Source: a virus. From it: a DNA stretch of 64,000 bases. The DNA lies in IMG/VR virus record IMGVR_UViG_3300049979_000188, one strand, 5' to 3'. Shown here one piece after another: positions 8,170 to 23,115 of this stretch. Every line of letters starts with the position of its first letter. Position 1 is the stretch's first letter. The notes beneath the pieces are model-generated. The model was given only the letters and a program-made list of their open reading frames with translations, was not told the origin of the DNA and ran no database searches. Made by a program: the position numbers and the translations under genes.

Positions 8170-9609
8170 TTAACGTACGCCAGCTAAGGCCGCTAACCGT
8201 GCTATTTTTACTTCCTGCGGTACGCGTTGTCCGTATTTGGGGCACTGCTCATAGTAGTAGCGGCGGCTTGATTCGGTGAGTAGACTCAGCGTAGTTTCAG
8301 GCACCGGGCGGCGGGCTTGCAACTCTTGCAGCAAGTAGGCCCGCTGCGCCGAAGGCTGGGCTTGGTTGATAAGGCCAGGCCCAACGGGCAGACTCGCTTC
8401 CTTGAGCAACGAAGTCGCCGCGGCCGTATTCACGGCTGGCGACTTGGCGCTACCAAACCACGTGGCCACTGCACTGGCCGCTGGTGGCCATACGGACCCG
8501 TTAGGGGTACTTCCTGTTCCGGATTGCGTGGTATCGGTCAGGGGGTAGGCACTCAGCCAGGCGGCGGGGTGCTGCTTGTCGACGCGGTTGTAGCGCCAAA
8601 ATAAAGTGGCCGCGCGCCGGCGCTGGGCTTCGGTACTAACTGCCGCTTGTTCGTCGGTGAGCATGTGGGCACGCGAAATATAGAGGTCTCGTATAGCCGG
8701 GGAGGCCCCCTCGTACTCCGGGTTGCTCAACGAATAGCCTAGCTTTAGGTAGGTGCTTTGCTGAGCTGGGTTCAGACTGGCAAAGGGTACTCGCTTTTCA
8801 GTGGGTACTTCCGGGCTGGCAGCTCGTGCCTGAGCCACATCACTGCTCTCTTGGTCCGTAAGGGGAGTGGGGACAAACAAGTGACGCGCCTTTTCCAGGC
8901 CGGGCTTTGTGGCCAGGAACGCATCCAGGTTGCCCTTGAACTTGCGGGTACGGTAGTCCTCGGCGTTGTTGGCGAAGGTGAAGTCGTAGCCGCCGTCCGC
9001 CCGGGCCGAGATGACGGTGATGTGCGTGGGGTCGTAGGGGGAAACGCCCGTATCGTAAACAAAGAAATAGCTCGCGTTGTGCTTGGCGCGGTAATCGTGG
9101 TAAAAGTTGTTTTCGCGCCGCGAGATGCAAAACCCGTAGCGTTTGTTTTGCCCGTAGCGAATGCAGTCGTTTTCGTTATGGGCGACAAAAACCTTGTAGC
9201 GGCCGTCTTCCCAATCGGCGGGCGTTTCGTTTACGCTAAATTCGTCGCCCGCGCTCTGCGCCTGTTTCTTTTCCGTCTTTGCCGCGTAGGCCTGGGCTGC
9301 CTGCTCCAGGGCGCCGGCGCTCTTACTCTGGGCAATAATGCCGCTGCTATCGAGCCCTTTGCTACTTAAGGCCGCCAGCGCCCCGGCCGCGCGAAGAATG
9401 TCGTCCTGCGCGCTCGGGGATTGGCTGATAAGCGTCGCCAGGGTGCGAATCACTCCGCCCTGCTTGTTGGCCTTGAAATTAGCGGCCACGCCGCGGATGG
9501 CCTCAAATTGAGTCTCGCTCAGGCTGTCGGGACGTAGCCCGTATTTGGAGAGTAGTTCGGGGCTGAAAGCTTCGGAAAGCAGGCTCTCAGAAAAGGTGGT
9601 TGGTTGCAT
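8170..9609 (-). CDS. Large hypothetical phage protein
   Basis: Long ORF; likely ATG at 9609 just downstream of a TATATTTG box; contains CIRYG..YGFCIS..NFY.DY..YFF segment. Confidence 0.75.
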   Translation of the reverse strand: MQPTTFSESLLSEAFSPELLSKYGLRPDSLSETQFEAIRGVAANFKANKQGGVIRTLATLISQSPSAQDDILRAAGALAALSSKGLDSSGIIAQSKSAGALEQAAQAYAAKTEKKQAQSAGDEFSVNETPADWEDGRYKVFVAHNENDCIRYGQNKRYGFCISRRENNFYHDYRAKHNASYFFVYDTGVSPYDPTHITVISARADGGYDFTFANNAEDYRTRKFKGNLDAFLATKPGLEKARHLFVPTPLTDQESSDVAQARAASPEVPTEKRVPFASLNPAQQSTYLKLGYSLSNPEYEGASPAIRDLYISRAHMLTDEQAAVSTEAQRRRAATLFWRYNRVDKQHPAAWLSAYPLTDTTQSGTGSTPNGSVWPPAASAVATWFGSAKSPAVNTAAATSLLKEASLPVGPGLINQAQPSAQRAYLLQELQARRPVPETTLSLLTESSRRYYYEQCPKYGQRVPQEVKIARLAALAGVR

Positions 9610-13256: not shown

Positions 13257-13284
13257 GTAACGTAGCCCCTGAAAAACCCGTAAA
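13257..13284 (+). promoter_or_regulatory. ECF-type promoter motif GTAAC-N17-CGTAAA
   Basis: Exact motif immediately after the sbcCD stop; ATG at 13306. Confidence 0.7.
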
Positions 13285-13305: not shown

Positions 13306-13923
13306 ATGCGAGAACGCCGCGAAATTATCAAACTGGCCGGTCAGCTGCAGCAGGGAAGCCCGCTGCAGCCTAGCGCCCTGGCCAAATTCATCGAAGACCA
13401 CCAGCTCAGCAGTGAGGAAGTAGCCATGCTTCAAGGGGAGCTTATTAGCAACATTGTCGTCTTGTTCAGTACCCAGCAAGCCACGACGGCCCTGCTGCGT
13501 CAACATAAGCCCGTAGCCGTTACTGCGCCAAGCCCCAGTGTGCCTAGCTTGGCGCAGTTACCCGACGAGTTGCTCAGCGAGGCCATTGGCCAGCCGCTCT
13601 ACCAGGCCGGTGACCCCGTGCCTTGGTACGGAACTTACCAGCGTCGACTCGGCACCGGCCTGTATGTGAAGCGTAGTGACGGCTCAGGGCCCATGGATGC
13701 GCAACTCGAAAGCCTCTACTCGTTTCCCTATGACCCGCAGGCCTACAAGCAGGCCCGGGCCGGAGGCTTCGTGCGCTACTACTACCCCAGCAAGGGCCTG
13801 GACTTGGTTCACGTAGACCAAATCGCCCTTATCGACGCCAATACCGGCTCCTTGCAGCTCAGCAATGGCAAACTTATTCCGCTTACCTACATCACGGGTA
13901 TTTTCGACAAGAACCTCTCATGA
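13306..13923 (+). CDS. Hypothetical protein
   Basis: 205-aa ORF; stop overlaps the next start (ATGA). Confidence 0.75.
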   Translation: MRERREIIKLAGQLQQGSPLQPSALAKFIEDHQLSSEEVAMLQGELISNIVVLFSTQQATTALLRQHKPVAVTAPSPSVPSLAQLPDELLSEAIGQPLYQAGDPVPWYGTYQRRLGTGLYVKRSDGSGPMDAQLESLYSFPYDPQAYKQARAGGFVRYYYPSKGLDLVHVDQIALIDANTGSLQLSNGKLIPLTYITGIFDKNLS

Positions 13924-14849
13924 GTCAACCTAAAGAACCCACGCCGCTGCTCATGCTGCTGCTCGGTACGCCTGGCTACGTAACGGAGCCTGAAACCAAA
14001 CCATACCGTATCCTGCCCCTGCGCTACCAACGCGGTAACTTTCCCGGGGGAGAAGTATTTTTTCGACTCGACCACCCCGATTACGTAACGGGTAAACCCG
14101 TACTCGTAACGGCCCGTTTGCGCAGTAGTGACGACGTAATGGCTTTGCTTATGGCCACCGATGCCCTGCGCCGGCTTTACCCGGCTAGTCTCACCCTTAA
14201 ACTCTTTTACCTGCCCTATGGGCGCCAGGACCGGGTTGCCGTGGAAGGCGAATCGCTCTCGGTTGCCGTGATGGGGGAACTGCTTAAAAACTTGCCCTAC
14301 GAAAGCATCTTCGTGCTCGAACCCCATAGCGACGGGTCGGCCATTGCCTTGGGGCCCAAGGCTACCATGCTTACCAATAACAGCGTAGGCTACGCCCAGT
14401 TCGTGCGCCACAGCCTCCTGGAGCAAGGCCTTACCCCCGATAAGGTTGTCTTGGTAAGTCCGGACGCGGGGGCCGCCAAACGCCAGGTTCGCATGAGCCA
14501 GGATTTGCAGCTCTTTGACGTAGCCGAAGGCAAAAAGCACCGCGATTTGGAAACTAACCGGTTAACGGGCTTTGGCGTTGACCGGGAAGACTTCCAGGGT
14601 AAAGTTGCCCTTATTGTCGATGACCTCTGCGACGGGGGAGGCACATTTGTGGGCCTGGCTAAGGTTTTGCGCGAACGGGGGGCTTCGGCCGTGCACCTGA
14701 TGGTCACGCACGGGCTTTTCCCCAAAGGACTCGCTATTTTTCAGGGCCTCATCGACGTGGTGTACTCCACCAACTCCTACCGTGATTTTGACGACTTAGC
14801 CCCGGTAGAGGGCGTGCGCTTTCTGGCGTACAAGCTCCAACTATTCTAA
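13920..14849 (+). CDS. prs: Ribose-phosphate pyrophosphokinase-like protein (candidate NARP1 Adps)
   Basis: FPGGE, YLPYGRQDRV, VSPDAGA and PRPP-binding IVDDLCDGGGTF; adjacent to a Nampt-like gene. Confidence 0.9.
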   Translation: MSQPKEPTPLLMLLLGTPGYVTEPETKPYRILPLRYQRGNFPGGEVFFRLDHPDYVTGKPVLVTARLRSSDDVMALLMATDALRRLYPASLTLKLFYLPYGRQDRVAVEGESLSVAVMGELLKNLPYESIFVLEPHSDGSAIALGPKATMLTNNSVGYAQFVRHSLLEQGLTPDKVVLVSPDAGAAKRQVRMSQDLQLFDVAEGKKHRDLETNRLTGFGVDREDFQGKVALIVDDLCDGGGTFVGLAKVLRERGASAVHLMVTHGLFPKGLAIFQGLIDVVYSTNSYRDFDDLAPVEGVRFLAYKLQLF

Positions 14850-14873
14850 TTTTTCACTTTTTCAGCCCTTACT

Positions 14874-15704
14874 ATGTGGTTAGGCTCCCTGCTTCACACC
14901 GACGTCTATAAAGTCGGCCACGAAGCCCAATACCCGGAAGACATCACCAAAATCTACTCGACGCTGGTGGCCCGGTCCGGGAAAACCTACCCGGCCTCCG
15001 TTCAATTCGGCGACAGCTTCTACTTGAAGGAATACCTGATGAACGGCATCAAGCGCGGCGACGTGCAGCAATTTATGCTGCTGGCTGACGCCATCCTGGG
15101 CCCGGGTAAAGTTAAACCCGCCGACTTCTACAAACTTCAGGAGCTAGGTTACTGGCCAGTGGAAATCAAGAGCTTACCCGAGGGCTCGCTGGTACGCACC
15201 GGGAACGTACTCACGAGCTACGAGAGCACCAACAAGGACTTGCCCTGGGTGGGTGGCTTTTTGGAAGGCCTTACCCTTAAAGTGTGGAACTCCTCGACGG
15301 TGGCCACTAATTCGTTCCGCTTGCGTAAGGTGGTGGAGCTCTTTGCCGAGCGCACTGCTGAGACAATGGACCACGTGGACTACCAGATTCACGATTTCGG
15401 CTACCGCGGCTGCTCTTCGGAGGAAACGGCCGCCATTGGCGGGGCTGCCCACTTGCTGTCTTTCCGGGGCACGGACACGATTCCCGGGGTGGCCCTGCTC
15501 GATACGTTCTACAACGTGGATAACTCGACGCCGCTCTCGGCCATCGGTAACTCCGTACCGGCTTCTGAGCACAGTGTAGCTTGCGCCTGGTCGGGCACTC
15601 AGGCTAAGTACGTAGACAGCGTGGAAGAAATCTTTGACGAAGTCACTGGTCGCTGGCTTGTGAGTCACTATCTGAAAGATGGTAAAGTCGTGTCGAACGT
15701 GTAA
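14874..15704 (+). CDS. nadV: Nicotinamide phosphoribosyltransferase-like protein (candidate NARP1 Namat), N-terminal part
   Basis: LHTDVYKVGH..QYP, HDFGYRG, HLLSFRGTDT and SVPASEHSV; ends at TAA 15702-15704 before the C-terminal half. Confidence 0.88.
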   Translation: MWLGSLLHTDVYKVGHEAQYPEDITKIYSTLVARSGKTYPASVQFGDSFYLKEYLMNGIKRGDVQQFMLLADAILGPGKVKPADFYKLQELGYWPVEIKSLPEGSLVRTGNVLTSYESTNKDLPWVGGFLEGLTLKVWNSSTVATNSFRLRKVVELFAERTAETMDHVDYQIHDFGYRGCSSEETAAIGGAAHLLSFRGTDTIPGVALLDTFYNVDNSTPLSAIGNSVPASEHSVACAWSGTQAKYVDSVEEIFDEVTGRWLVSHYLKDGKVVSNV

Positions 15705-16347
15705 GCAGGAAAAACCATTAACTGAGTTTTCTCGCTATGCGCAAGCTGCTGATGGCTTACGTCCTGTGTGCAAGTGTTGCATTAATGCGTACAACAGACA
15801 AAAACGTGCTGAGCACCTCCACCAATACCAAACAGGTCAACGGAAACGCTATCAACTAAATCCCCAAAAATTTCGAGCTGAGAAACTGGTTTATGAGGCC
15901 GAGCACAAAGCTGAAAAAGCAGCCTACGATAAAGTTTATCGTCAACGAAACGCTCTTAAACAGGCACAAGCTAAACGAGAGTGGACTGAACGGAATCGCA
16001 CCAATCCACTTGTAAAGCTTAAACGGAATTTACGTCGCCGATTACATCATGTACTCGCTGGCACCAATAAGGCCGCCAGCACCATGGAATTAATTGGCTG
16101 TACAATTGACGAACTACGAAGCCACCTTGAAGGGCAGTTTACCGCGCTAATGAGTTGGGATAACTACGGGCCATACGGCTGGCATGTCGACCATCGACAA
16201 CCTTGTTACACATTTGATTTAACAGACCCTGACCAACAACGCGTCTGTTTCCATTTTAGTAATTTACGACCGCTTTGGTGGTTAGAAAACGTTTCTCGGC
16301 CTCGGCCTAAACACTATGCATCAAACTCGCATCCGTCTACTCAGTGA
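15679..16347 (+). CDS. HNH-type homing endonuclease inserted in the Nampt gene
   Basis: N-terminal CxxC...CxxC zinc finger; C-terminal MSWDNYG..GWHVDHRQPC..FDL....Q..CFHFSNLRPLW..EN; visibly AT-richer; overlaps both Nampt halves in a third frame. Confidence 0.85.
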   Translation: MVKSCRTCKQEKPLTEFSRYAQAADGLRPVCKCCINAYNRQKRAEHLHQYQTGQRKRYQLNPQKFRAEKLVYEAEHKAEKAAYDKVYRQRNALKQAQAKREWTERNRTNPLVKLKRNLRRRLHHVLAGTNKAASTMELIGCTIDELRSHLEGQFTALMSWDNYGPYGWHVDHRQPCYTFDLTDPDQQRVCFHFSNLRPLWWLENVSRPRPKHYASNSHPSTQ

Positions 16348-17350
16348 GCGTGAAACGCTCCAGTATGGAGAGTACCGTTATTTCGAGAACATGCTTGACC
16401 TTTACCCCACCGGTATTGTTAGCGTGGTATCCGATACGTATGACCTCTGGCATGTCATAACGAATTACCTGCCGCGGCTAAAATCGCGCATTCTAGCTCG
16501 CGATGGTAAGCTTGTTCTTCGCCCTGATTCAGGGGACCCTGAGCTGATTCTGCTCGGTGACCCGAATGCGCTTGAAGGCTCACCAGCTAACCTCGGGGTA
16601 CTTGAACTACTCTGGAATGAATTCGGTGGTACCATTAATACCAAGGGCTACCGCGTACTTGACCCGCGTATCGGCGTTATCTACGGCGATGGCATCTACT
16701 ACGAGCGCCTGGTGCGCATTCTAGTGGGCATGGAACGCAAGGGCTATGCTACGGTTATCCCGTTCGGCATCGGCGGGCTGCTGCTCCAGCAGTTTAGTCG
16801 CGATACGCTCGCCTTTGCTATCAAGGCTACCTACGTGGAGGCGAATGGTGAGGGGCGTGACATCATGAAGGACCCCATTACCGACCACGCTAAAAAGTCC
16901 TTCAAAGGCCGCGTAGTCGTCACGCGTGACCCCATTACGCAAGAGTACGTAACGCGTGACCAGGTAAGTCAGGAAGAAGCGGCCGGTGGGTTGCTGCAGC
17001 TTATCTACCGCAACGGGGTGCTCTACAACAGCCCCAGCCTGGCTGAAATTCGGACCCGACTGGCCGCTGAACCCCTGCCGGCCGGCTTCGTGCCAACGAT
17101 GGAGGAGCTCTATGCCCTGGCCGACGCTACTCCGCTCTCGCGCTACCAGACAAAATCGGATACCGCGCCGCTGAGTTTTGAAACAGTTCGCAACTGGCTG
17201 GCTACGCAAGGTGCCGACTTTACGCAAGCGCAGGTAGCGGAAGTGCTGATGGCATTGGGCGTAGCTGAAACTACGACTGAGGAGGCTGATTCGGCGCTTA
17301 ACCCGGCCCCGGAAGGGAAACCGGGTTCGCAGAAAGCTCGTCGTAAGTAG
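16316..17350 (+). CDS. nadV: Nampt-like protein, C-terminal part with an extra tail
   Basis: YPTGIVSVVSDTYD, LVLRPDSGDP, GVIYGDGI, FGIGG.LLQ, RDTLAFAIKAT and KDPITD..KKSFKG. Confidence 0.88.
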   Translation: MHQTRIRLLSERETLQYGEYRYFENMLDLYPTGIVSVVSDTYDLWHVITNYLPRLKSRILARDGKLVLRPDSGDPELILLGDPNALEGSPANLGVLELLWNEFGGTINTKGYRVLDPRIGVIYGDGIYYERLVRILVGMERKGYATVIPFGIGGLLLQQFSRDTLAFAIKATYVEANGEGRDIMKDPITDHAKKSFKGRVVVTRDPITQEYVTRDQVSQEEAAGGLLQLIYRNGVLYNSPSLAEIRTRLAAEPLPAGFVPTMEELYALADATPLSRYQTKSDTAPLSFETVRNWLATQGADFTQAQVAEVLMALGVAETTTEEADSALNPAPEGKPGSQKARRK

Positions 17351-17359
17351 TACCTCATC

Positions 17360-17398
17360 ACCTACTCAGGTAGCCAAACCTGCCTGGGTAGGTTTTTA
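17360..17398 (+). terminator. Intrinsic terminator
   Basis: ACCTACTCAGGTAG...CTGCCTGGGTAGGT stem (G-U pairs) followed by TTTT. Confidence 0.65.
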
Positions 17399-17408
17399 CT
17401 TGTTCGTC

Positions 17409-18054: not shown

Positions 18055-18338
18055 TTACCGCCCAAACCTTAACGGGTGCCACCGTAGAAGTGCTACCCAA
18101 TTTGCCGGCTGAGCTCAAGCGCCTGGCCTTTGAGGACCCCCACCAGCTTGACGAGCTAATCGGTACCACTCAGTACGTTTACAATGCTTTCCCAGCTACG
18201 CACGAAGGAGTCTGGCCCCCCGCCATGGACGGGCAGTATACCCAGTGGGAAGACGAAGCGGGCAATGGCGTTTTCCTGGCTGAAGTTGACCTGGGTTGCG
18301 TTATTCCCTCCACGAGTCTACGCATTGTTACGACGTGA
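18051..18338 (+). CDS. Hypothetical protein
   Basis: ATGA coupling with the upstream gene. Confidence 0.65.
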   Translation: MITAQTLTGATVEVLPNLPAELKRLAFEDPHQLDELIGTTQYVYNAFPATHEGVWPPAMDGQYTQWEDEAGNGVFLAEVDLGCVIPSTSLRIVTT

Positions 18339-18346
18339 TTCATGTC

Positions 18347-18706
18347 GTGAGCAAGCACTGGTACGTAAGTCAGAACCCCGCCCAGGAATTTTACATCGGG
18401 CGGGGTTCTGTGCTGGGTAACCGGGCTACCAGCATTCAAAATGGGTCGACCAAAGCCGAGGTAATCTGTCAGACCCCCGAAGAGAGCATCACCTGGTTTA
18501 GCCAGTGGCTACACGTACAGTTAGCCGAGAAAGACCCGTCCGTTTGTCAGCAGCTCAACCGTATCTACCAGGCAGCCAAGCAAGGGGATGTTTACCTGAT
18601 ATGCTTTTGTAAAAAAGCGCCTCAGGCCAAGCCACCGCAAAAACCCTGTCACGGAGACGTGATAAAAGAACTGATAGAAAGTAAATTAAGAGTTCATGCA
18701 CCCTAA
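18347..18706 (+). CDS. DUF4326-like protein
   Basis: YIGRGSVLGN...WFSQWL...LICFC...PCHGDVI pattern; GTG start inferred. Confidence 0.75.
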   Translation: MSKHWYVSQNPAQEFYIGRGSVLGNRATSIQNGSTKAEVICQTPEESITWFSQWLHVQLAEKDPSVCQQLNRIYQAAKQGDVYLICFCKKAPQAKPPQKPCHGDVIKELIESKLRVHAP

Positions 18707-19246: not shown

Positions 19247-20449
19247 ATGTTGAAAGCGTATCAATACAGGTTGTACCCAACCGCTGCCCAAACCGAGTTG
19301 TTGAATCAGCACATCGGCGCAGCGCGTTTTGTGTACAACCTTGCCTTGGATACCAAGCAGCAAGCCTACACTCGGTTTGGTAAAACGCTTACTTGCGTTG
19401 ACTTGATTAACCAACTTCCCGACCTCAAAACGGAGTGTCCGTGGTTAAAATTGGTCAACTCGCAATCGTTGCAAATGGCGTTGCGTAATCTGGATAATGC
19501 CTTTACCAACTTCTTCAAAGGTCGTGCGGATTATCCAAATTTCCGCAAGAAAACCAATGGCGGCTCGTTTCAAGTGCCTGCCAACGGGCAAGTAGACTTC
19601 GGCAACAGTACTATCAGTTTGCCTAAATTCAAGTCCGGTATTAAGTCGGTATTGCACAGTAGTTTTCGTGGTACGGTTAAGACCGTCACGATTTGTAGAA
19701 CCCCAACGGGCAAATTCTTCGCGTCTGTGTTGGTCGATACCAACTACCAAGCCGAAACGCTGGTAGCACTCAACCCTGAAAAGGTAGTTGGAGTAGACTT
19801 GGGTATTAAGGACTTCGCTGTGTTGAGTACGGGCGAAGCCATAGCCAATCCTAAGCACCTGCGGAAGAATCTGGCGCGGTTAAAGGTCTTACAACGTCGG
19901 GCATCTCGGAAGGTGAAACGTAGTGCCAATCGGCGCAAAGCCAACCTGAAAGTAGCGAAGCAACACGAACGGATTGCCAATTGCAGAAAGAATTTCTTGC
20001 ATCAACTCAGTAGCAAGCTCGTCAAGAACCACGACGGAATTGCTATTGAGGATTTGGCTGTCAAGAACTTACTCAAAAATCATAAATTGGCACAAGCCAT
20101 ATCGGATGTGAGTTGGGCAGAGTTTAGAAGGCAGTTGGAATACAAATGCGAATGGCAGGGCAAGCACCTGCTCGTCATTGGACGATATGAGCCTTCCACG
20201 AAGCTCTGTTCAACGTGTGGCTATACGAACCACACACTGACCTTAGCTGACCGGGAATGGAATTGTCCGTCCTGTGGTTCGCATCACGACCGCGACCATA
20301 ACGCTGCTATTAATATCAAGCAGATGGCATTGGTCAAGAATAATACAGGGGTGGAACGCCCCGGTGAGCCTGTGGAGACGCTGACATTGGTCAGGTCATT
20401 GAAGCAGGAAAAACGAGCTACTCTTGTATCGAAGCCCCTCTCCCTTTAG
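19247..20449 (+). CDS. tnpB: RNA-guided endonuclease TnpB
   Basis: MLKAYQYRLYPT HTH; RuvC residues in VGVDLG, IAIEDL and DRDHNAAINI; CSTCG/CPSCG zinc finger. Confidence 0.95.
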   Translation: MLKAYQYRLYPTAAQTELLNQHIGAARFVYNLALDTKQQAYTRFGKTLTCVDLINQLPDLKTECPWLKLVNSQSLQMALRNLDNAFTNFFKGRADYPNFRKKTNGGSFQVPANGQVDFGNSTISLPKFKSGIKSVLHSSFRGTVKTVTICRTPTGKFFASVLVDTNYQAETLVALNPEKVVGVDLGIKDFAVLSTGEAIANPKHLRKNLARLKVLQRRASRKVKRSANRRKANLKVAKQHERIANCRKNFLHQLSSKLVKNHDGIAIEDLAVKNLLKNHKLAQAISDVSWAEFRRQLEYKCEWQGKHLLVIGRYEPSTKLCSTCGYTNHTLTLADREWNCPSCGSHHDRDHNAAINIKQMALVKNNTGVERPGEPVETLTLVRSLKQEKRATLVSKPLSL

Positions 20450-23087: not shown

Positions 23088-23115
23088 GTAACGTCGCGCC
23101 CCTGTTCCGCGTAGA
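23088..23115 (+). promoter_or_regulatory. ECF-type promoter motif GTAAC-N17-CGTAGA
   Basis: Read directly; ATG 6 nt downstream at 23122. Confidence 0.65.

Follow-up and report, generated by a model that had tools for sequence, protein, structure and literature searches.

A Nampt/Namat-family phage gene in two pieces around a putative HNH endonuclease gene: a probable two-chain enzyme with conserved terminal tails

The two gene halves and the break between them

In the virus record IMGVR_UViG_3300049979_000188 from IMG/VR, a stretch of 64,000 nucleotides (nt) referred to here as the window, a gene of the Nampt/Namat family (Nampt, nicotinamide phosphoribosyltransferase) is present in two pieces, with a gene for a putative HNH-type endonuclease between them. 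Three plus-strand open reading frames (ORFs), each in a different frame, were found in the ORF listing at positions 14874-15704, 15679-16347, and 16316-17350. They encode an N-terminal part of the enzyme of 276 amino acids (aa; the N-half, ending with TAA at 15702-15704), an HNH-type protein of 222 aa, and a C-terminal part of 344 aa (the C-half). The HNH ORF overlaps the N-half by 26 nt and the C-half by 32 nt, and over roughly 15600-16400 the G+C content dips from ~0.56-0.58 to ~0.46. We consider it likely that an HNH cassette has split the gene and that the two halves are translated separately and reassemble as a two-chain enzyme.

Using Pfam, NAMPT_N and positions 1-64 of the NAPRTase profile were assigned to the N-half and positions 72-231 of NAPRTase to the C-half, while in PHROGs both halves matched nicotinamide phosphoribosyltransferase (1e-64 for the N-half and 4e-78 for the C-half). 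The N-half aligned with positions 7-251 of NCBIfam NF006629 (226.7 bits) and the C-half with positions 240-463 (252.8 bits), and the summed bits of the two exceed the 405-bit cut-off set for the whole protein. Full coverage of the Nampt/NAPRTase type II family (PF18127 plus PF04095; NF006629) is reached only by the two ORFs jointly. All of the catalytic motifs are present, namely, the Tyr of DVYK, HDFGYRG, GTDT, the His of (A/S)EHS, the Arg and Asp of RPDSG, GDG, GxGG, and RD. These motifs fall in invariant or near-invariant columns in alignments of 40 and 42 sequences, as well as against human Nampt and 9w5x, and the Arg of RPDSG in the C-half aligns as the equivalent of R306 of SpbetaL1 Namat. 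An earlier reading of the sequence (the original prediction) had given the same ORF coordinates and frames, described a split gene, and held the catalytic motifs to be intact in both halves; the ORF listing, family matches, and alignments agree with it on each count. The features of the locus are listed in Table 1.

Table 1. Features of the split gene and its operon in the window
Feature	Position	Strand	Remarks
N-half core, aa 1-241	14874..15596	+	NAMPT_N and first part of catalytic domain; DVYK, HDFGYRG, GTDT, SEHS (catalytic His)
N-half C-terminal tail, aa 242-276 and stop	15597..15704	+	Acidic, isoelectric point (pI) 4.9, G+C 0.46; final 26 nt overlap the HNH start
Putative HNH-type (endonuclease VII-like) free-standing homing endonuclease gene, 222 aa	15679..16347	+	phrog_1035, 1e-18
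C-half N-terminal head, ~aa 1-14	16316..16357	+	Basic, MHQTRIRLL..., pI 9.3; homology starts at aa 15-18
C-half core	16358..17074	+	Remaining catalytic domain; RPDSG, YGDG, GIGG, SRD motifs
C-terminal extension, ~90 aa past the Nampt fold	17075..17350	+	Profile ends at C-half aa 251-253
Prs-like gene, Adps type, 309 aa	13920..14849	+	Pfam Pribosyltran_N, Pribosyltran, Pribosyl_synth; phrog_619, 3e-68
Phage ECF-like promoter motif, GTAAC-N17-CGTAA	13257..13283	+	Only copy upstream of the operon; next plus-strand copy at 23088
Intrinsic terminator-like hairpin, 14-bp stem then T run	17360..17393	+	Directly 3' of the C-half

To locate the break, a profile of 474 positions built from 206 intact relatives was used. 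The homology of the N-half ends at profile positions 236-241 (aa ~241), or up to position 248 in one reading, and that of the C-half begins at positions 237-239; in all, the N-half covers positions 5-241 and the C-half positions 239-472. The break is clean, in that no part of the fold is either lost or duplicated. Relative to solved structures, it lies ~8 residues past the catalytic His of (A/S)EHS and ahead of the next helix. Outside the homologous cores, the N-half carries a 35-aa tail (nt 15597-15701) and the C-half a head of 10 to 14 aa, neither of which has a counterpart in intact relatives. The closest of these, protein P0002 on locus L002 (66% identical), is continuous through the junction (...SEHSVITSFGRENELAAF...) and possesses neither tail, head, nor endonuclease. 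As a side observation, a C-terminal extension of ~90-140 aa is present in the window (17075-17350), in a second phage contig, L001 (6772-7197), and at the C terminus of P0002, and in all three it opens with the common motif P-(A/E)-G-F-x-P-(T/S)-x-E-E-L.

The G+C content of the tail is 0.46 in the window and 0.49 in L001, compared with 0.46 and 0.42, respectively, for the HNH gene, 0.41 for the L001 head, and 0.55-0.61 for the enzyme cores. As the low G+C content is shared with the HNH gene and is unlike that of the cores, the tails most likely came with the cassette. In both phages the tail has a pI of 4.8-4.9, with a conserved VDSVEE-FDE stretch carrying a net charge of -4 to -6, whereas the head has a pI of 9.3-10.7 and a conserved R-x-R-L-L motif. 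The latter reads RTRLL in L001 and RVRLL in P0015, a Namat-type C-half that is encoded on two Logan contigs. In the window, the head is read in a frame different from that of the HNH ORF, within whose 3' end its codons lie. The break had originally been placed inside an apparent loop insertion; what lies there is instead a pair of terminal extensions whose composition is that of the inserted cassette. A word-based search for relatives of the tail, using residues 230-276, returned only the protein from the window itself, and IMG/VR contained no match to a degenerate DNA pattern of it. In a MAFFT alignment the tail was placed against downstream Nampt sequence, as if it were a degenerate duplicate; this reading was rejected, as unfiltered hmmsearch gave no second domain and the G+C content is cassette-like.

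Conservation, recurrence of the split, and the endonuclease

The same three genes, with the same junction, were identified in L001, a contig of 291 kb that comes from a different sample. Amino acid identity between the window and L001 is 62% for the N-core, 58% for the tail, 51% for the HNH protein, 53% for the head, and 64% for the C-core. Nonsynonymous and synonymous divergence (dN and dS) and differences by codon position are given in Table 2. In this comparison the dN/dS of both halves is ~0.2-0.25, and the halves, the endonuclease, and the nonhomologous tail are under purifying selection, each in its own frame. As the pieces have been kept at synonymous divergence near or at saturation, the split is old, and selection on all of them argues against a pseudogene.

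Table 2. Divergence between the window and L001 by segment
Segment	dN	dS	Differences at codon positions 1 and 2	Differences at codon position 3
N-core	0.34	1.36	0.28, 0.28	0.52
C-core	0.32	1.49	0.29, 0.24	0.54
Tail, nonoverlapping part	0.43	saturated	0.30, 0.33	0.74
HNH, nonoverlapping part	0.43	saturated	0.39, 0.32	0.61

From a profile scan of 83 loci, it was found that 80 carry the gene as a single ORF and three are split (the window, L001, and L025), all three with an endonuclease. L025 is a low-G+C IMG/VR contig on which a Namat-type gene is divided at the same profile position (within ~2 positions of the window), with an endonuclease between the halves and an Adps-like gene upstream, as in the window. 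It differs in that the endonuclease is unrelated and lies antisense (phrog_314, "homing endonuclease," with a NUMOD3 motif), in that its tails are unrelated to those of the window, and in that it carries the Namat aromatic signature described below. Because unrelated endonucleases split the same position, the loop after the catalytic His is a repeatedly used and tolerated split site. An arrangement that the original prediction had not known from this family is therefore shared by L001 and recurs at the same site in L025. A gene resembling nucleoside 2-deoxyribosyltransferases (PF15891, 5e-34) was also seen in L025, at 1682-2158, flanked by the Adps-like gene on one side and the split Namat gene on the other.

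A similar antisense layout is apparent on the two Logan contigs that encode P0015, from runs ERR12944142 and ERR12944138. P0015, 53% identical overall, begins MKRVRLL..., a head like that of the window. Over C-half codons 15-75 (window 16358-16540), the window matches P0015 rather than P0002 at 18 of 23 informative sites, but over codons 76-253 the proportion falls to 15 of 69 (Fisher P = 2e-6, with a breakpoint that was picked post hoc). The contrast is weaker but still present with other outgroups, and on the N-half side no signal of mosaicism was detected. This stretch could be a co-conversion tract left by homing, or it could reflect lineage-specific divergence. It is conceivable, although we regard it as doubtful, that the cassette is a portable kit bringing its own complementary assembly tails, which would make insertion into an active-site loop phenotypically neutral and let the cassette travel between divergent Nampt and Namat genes. 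The cassette-like G+C content of the tail in two phages, the RVRLL head of P0015, and the mosaic codons hint at such a kit.

The product of the HNH ORF matches phage "endonuclease VII"/HNH families in PHROGs; no Pfam match and no sequence match in the PDB was found for it. From the N terminus onward it consists of a CxxC...CxxC zinc ribbon, a long helical region, and a DH...N...N motif at the C-terminal end. Residues C5, C8, C31, C34, D171, H172, N195, and N204 are invariant in 50 relatives, the last four being in keeping with the conserved His-Asn-Asn/His catalytic motif of HNH/beta-beta-alpha-Me endonucleases. Its designation as a nuclease is one read from sequence. The family is large (39,935 representative clusters at E <= 0.001), and its members stand alone in many phages, Azospirillum phage Cd and phages of Rhizobium, Flavobacterium, and Vibrio among them. 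The AlphaFold2 (AF2) model has a predicted local distance difference test (pLDDT) score of 92.9, with disorder in the last 14 residues, the stretch overlapping the C-half head, as would fit a read-through extension without a counterpart in L001. Short local matches of the model in Foldseek were to Hpy99I, Cas9 HNH domains, and the HNH of ZRANB3, and the VIA-align list was dominated by coiled coils matching the long helices. Separately, the zinc ribbon (window 15679-15795, aa 1-39) superposes on residues 64-105 of Hpy99I, a beta-beta-alpha-Me restriction enzyme, although the match is a short one (Z score of 4.0, root mean square deviation of 1.6 Å, 38 residues). There are no paralogues of the HNH protein within the 64-kb window, and none of 63 IMG/VR loci with HNH relatives has a Nampt gene interrupted by one; a single locus (L122) carries an intact Nampt gene, on the other strand. 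A second mobile element gene was noted in the region, 1.9 kb downstream of the split gene, where a TnpB/IS605 OrfB-type protein of 400 aa is encoded at 19247-20449 on the plus strand (matching HTH_OrfB_IS605, OrfB_IS605 at 1.6e-28, and a Cas12f1-like TNB domain).

Operon context and enzyme identity

The Prs-like gene ends 25 nt upstream of the N-half. With a 205-aa ORF, the N-half, the HNH gene, and the C-half, it would form one transcription unit, judging from the promoter motif and terminator-like hairpin that bracket them. The motif GTAAC-N16-18-CGTA(A/G/T) occurs 21 times in the window (6103-59731, on both strands), where 1.0 would be expected by chance. The set of motifs fits the regulon of a phage ECF-like sigma factor, and the window encodes a Sigma70_r2 protein at 1206-1787. 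No Shine-Dalgarno sequence was found before the operon genes in either the window (13900-17400) or L001 (3400-7200); as there is none before any gene of the operon, its lack at the C-half start is no argument against translation of the C-half. The missing Shine-Dalgarno sequences, together with a best DNA match in a leaf metagenome and short matches in plant metagenomes from a second study, would fit a host that does not rely on them, such as one of the Bacteroidota. Downstream of the operon a DUF4326 gene is present in both phages (window 18296-18706; L001 9607-9981), and in L001 a GmrSD_N protein is encoded close to it, at 8296-9069.

Loss of the C-terminal module of PRPS has been called a defining signature of Adps (PMC13586617). 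The Prs-like protein of the window keeps the PRPS core and does not have the C-terminal alpha11-alpha12 module: it matches TIGR01251 (123 bits) over positions 27-273 of 309 only and ends shortly past the last core strand, as do the copies in L001, L002, and L025. A truncated Prs-like gene also lies upstream in L001 and in the intact relatives L002, L146, and L147. Having an Adps-like gene as its neighbor, the feature used to recognize Namat (Osterman et al., bioRxiv 10.1101/2024.02.11.579819), the split gene forms with it a NARP1-type pair. The NARP1 systems of phages SpbetaL1 and Bas63, made up of Adps (an ADPR pyrophosphokinase) and Namat (a nicotinamide ADP-ribose transferase), are similar in that a truncated Prs-like gene stands directly upstream of a Nampt-like gene, whereas the enzyme of the window is in two chains and does not have the selectivity-helix signature. 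That signature of the Namat selectivity-clamp helix is GS-X-phi1-X-phi2-X-phi3-TRD with aromatic X (Lan et al. 2026, PMC12774641). The helix of the window, L001, and L002 reads GGLLLQQFSRD, which is Nampt-like, with none of the three positions aromatic, while all three are aromatic in P0015, L025, and 79 IMG/VR loci. The C-half is closer to chains 9w5x/9w5w/9ke8 (E of ~1e-53) than to human Nampt (1e-30), and the residue numbers of R306, F392, and Y396, taken from the alignment with 9w5x, agree with SpbetaL1 Namat. No NMN (nicotinamide mononucleotide) adenylyltransferase was found among the 24 window ORFs scanned against Pfam. The Nampt/Namat identity first proposed is thus upheld at the level of the family and by the Adps-like neighbor, but the narrower Namat label is not secure, and the substrate could be either ADP-ribose pyrophosphate (ADPR-PP) or phosphoribosyl pyrophosphate (PRPP).

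A probable two-chain enzyme and its alternatives

The following steps would account for the locus. A free-standing HNH cassette of ~750 nt (~15597-16345) would have inserted into a Nampt/Namat-family gene after the catalytic His motif, this gene being the second of a Prs-like and Nampt-like pair that would rebuild NAD+. One transcript, running from the promoter motif at 13257 to the terminator at 17360, would cover the operon, and the three overlapping ORFs for the N-half, the endonuclease, and the C-half would be translated separately. The halves would then join noncovalently into a normal Nampt fold, its active site being made up of the His, HDFGYRG, and GTDT from the N-half and RPDSG, GDG, GIGG, and RD from the C-half. 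By analogy with NrdA-a/NrdA-b of Aeromonas phage Aeh1, for which this role has been shown by experiment, the acidic tail of the N-half and the basic head of the C-half, brought by the cassette, may help assembly. The anatomy, the lack of splicing signatures, the conserved arrangement, and purifying selection on each piece are what the sequences show; cotranscription, independent translation, assembly, activity, the role of the tails, and present mobility of the endonuclease are what we infer from them. Overall, the two-chain enzyme put forward in the original prediction gains from the anatomy, conservation, and selection, while the activity of the two-chain form stays presumptive.

In two-chain structure prediction, which had been suggested as a check, the halves gave an ipSAE of 0.91, compared with 0.00 for the best control, with contact agreement of at least 97% between runs and a partner pLDDT of at least 91; the ipSAE mark applied is reached by 58 of 80 solved complexes and by 2 of 110 mismatched pairs. 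There are ~410 predicted interchain contacts, and the interface includes tail residues 239-254 and 261-270 and head residues 2-19. This result largely expresses a likeness to solved single-chain Nampt structures and is not proof of binding.

A number of points weigh against the two-chain interpretation. Any two halves of a known fold would be likely to pass a complex prediction, and the independent translation and assembly of the halves are themselves inferred. The exact cassette is present in two lineages only, and the selection estimates come from one pairwise comparison with saturated dS. AF2 modeled the tail of the isolated N-half as a three-strand sheet with moderate confidence, a result that is distrusted as the input alignment had forced the tail onto downstream Nampt columns. 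Finally, Foldseek with the HNH model returned no match at E <= 0.001, and a beta-beta-alpha-metal fold was not confirmed.

The halves could in principle be rejoined by cryptic splicing or recoding, through a degenerate group I intron, a trans-splicing split intein, or a translational bypass. Phage nucleotide metabolism genes often have introns and inteins bearing HNH ORFs, and "fractured genes," in which split inteins flank an endonuclease gene, are known (Dassa et al. 2009, PMC2677866). We judge this exceedingly unlikely here. No Rfam intron family was matched at E <= 10 over 15300-16700 of the window or at E <= 1 in the split loci L001 and L025, and by this evidence a group I or II catalytic RNA core appears to be absent. 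The tail, which is the only sequence outside the HNH ORF and so the candidate 5' part of an intron, evolves as protein-coding sequence, and this coding selection argues against the tail being intron RNA. A split intein would show HINT blocks, a C-terminal His-Asn followed by Cys, Ser, or Thr, and a combined length of at least ~130 aa. Pfam found no intein domains, tail and head total ~45-50 aa, far below the size of a HINT domain, and the head has no terminal His-Asn and is followed in the window, L001, and P0015 by Glu, which is not a nucleophile; a split intein is therefore not indicated by sequence. As the three genes lie in frames 0, 1, and 2 in the window but 1, 2, and 1 in L001, a conserved in-frame element or a fixed frameshift is excluded. 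Contigs of 168-256 nt from three plant metagenome runs of a second study match 15274-15703 and 16984-17028 and show no joints, which says nothing either way on splicing or on alleles lacking the endonuclease. The energies of RNA hairpins that might hide the start of the HNH ORF or the C-half were not consistently below those of shuffled sequences (z of +1.0, -1.9, -1.0, and +0.8). The initial view that the junction has no room for an intron and no intein signature is borne out by Rfam, Pfam, coding selection on the tail, and the nonconserved frames.

A mobile gene inserted ~8 residues past the catalytic His would be expected to disrupt the enzyme, and the locus might then be an inactivated pseudogene, its decaying halves translated as remnants or not at all. 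This is highly improbable given the dN/dS of both halves at near-saturated or saturated synonymous divergence, catalytic motifs intact in two lineages, a nonhomologous tail conserved in frame, and an upstream partner gene that is also intact. It might also be that the split predates the endonuclease and that homing endonucleases later settled in the short gap of a two-gene enzyme, as free-standing endonucleases are common between cotranscribed genes and as unrelated ones, in opposite orientations, occupy the same junction in the window and L001 versus L025. Such an order of events is improbable, however, as an endonuclease-free two-gene form was not seen among the 83 loci, the tail and head have the G+C content of the cassette and not that of the enzyme gene, the closest intact relative is without tail, head, and HNH gene together, and the tails of the window and L025, which belong to different clades, are unrelated, suggesting separate events. 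Insertion of an HNH cassette into a gene whose halves are kept as a two-chain enzyme is the interpretation that we retain.

The breaking of genes into pieces by free-standing homing endonucleases is an established class, to which the locus would belong by its sequence, having intact homologues, an ORF with its own start and stop, tails, and in silico no splicing element. The best comparison is nrdA-a/mobE/nrdA-b of Aeh1 (Friedrich et al. 2007; Crona et al. 2011), the one case studied experimentally, where the endonuclease gene likewise overlaps the downstream half and is of lower G+C content, there is no intron or intein, and the catalytic residues are split over two polypeptides. Also alike is a pair of tails at the C and N termini, opposite in charge, which intact homologues lack and which presumably came with the insertion, so that the analogy drawn at the outset extends even to the tails. 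In Aeh1, neither activity nor assembly of the (a/b)2 large subunit is achieved without the tails that arose with the mobE insertion, and tails on other fragmented genes were predicted to exist but to have been overlooked (Crona et al. 2011, Nucleic Acids Res 39:1381, PMC3045599). The two systems differ in the enzyme, which is a class Ia ribonucleotide reductase in Aeh1 and a Nampt/Namat-family phosphoribosyl/ADP-ribosyl transferase here; in the endonuclease, MobE versus an endonuclease VII-like protein with a zinc ribbon; and in the polarity of the charges, which is reversed here, with an acidic C-terminal tail and a basic N-terminal head. Activity, assembly, and the requirement for the tails were shown biochemically in Aeh1 and are predicted here, whereas the two lineages at synonymous saturation provide evolutionary evidence for selection on the tail that has no parallel in the Aeh1 case. 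Fragmentation of phage or environmental genes is also tied to a homing endonuclease gene in the T4 topoisomerase genes 39/60, split by mobA, and in the fractured genes with split inteins (PMC2677866); unlike in these, no translational bypass element or split-intein blocks are present here.

In the literature that was searched, a split Nampt or Namat gene is nowhere described. What the locus adds is the evolutionary evidence of selection on insertion-derived tails and the repeated splitting of one site by unrelated endonucleases. As a natural case, and one replicated in evolution, the locus would join Aeh1 as a second example of "molecular lego," in which an endonuclease fragments an enzyme at its active site and short charged tails from the insertion appear to compensate. 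In phage counter-defense, automated searches for enzymes that rebuild NAD+ (nicotinamide adenine dinucleotide) can miss or mis-score such two-chain forms, and the permissive split site after the catalytic His could serve in the design of split enzymes. The locus also flags a clade of paired Adps-like and Nampt-like genes without the published Namat signature, whose substrate is a directly testable question.

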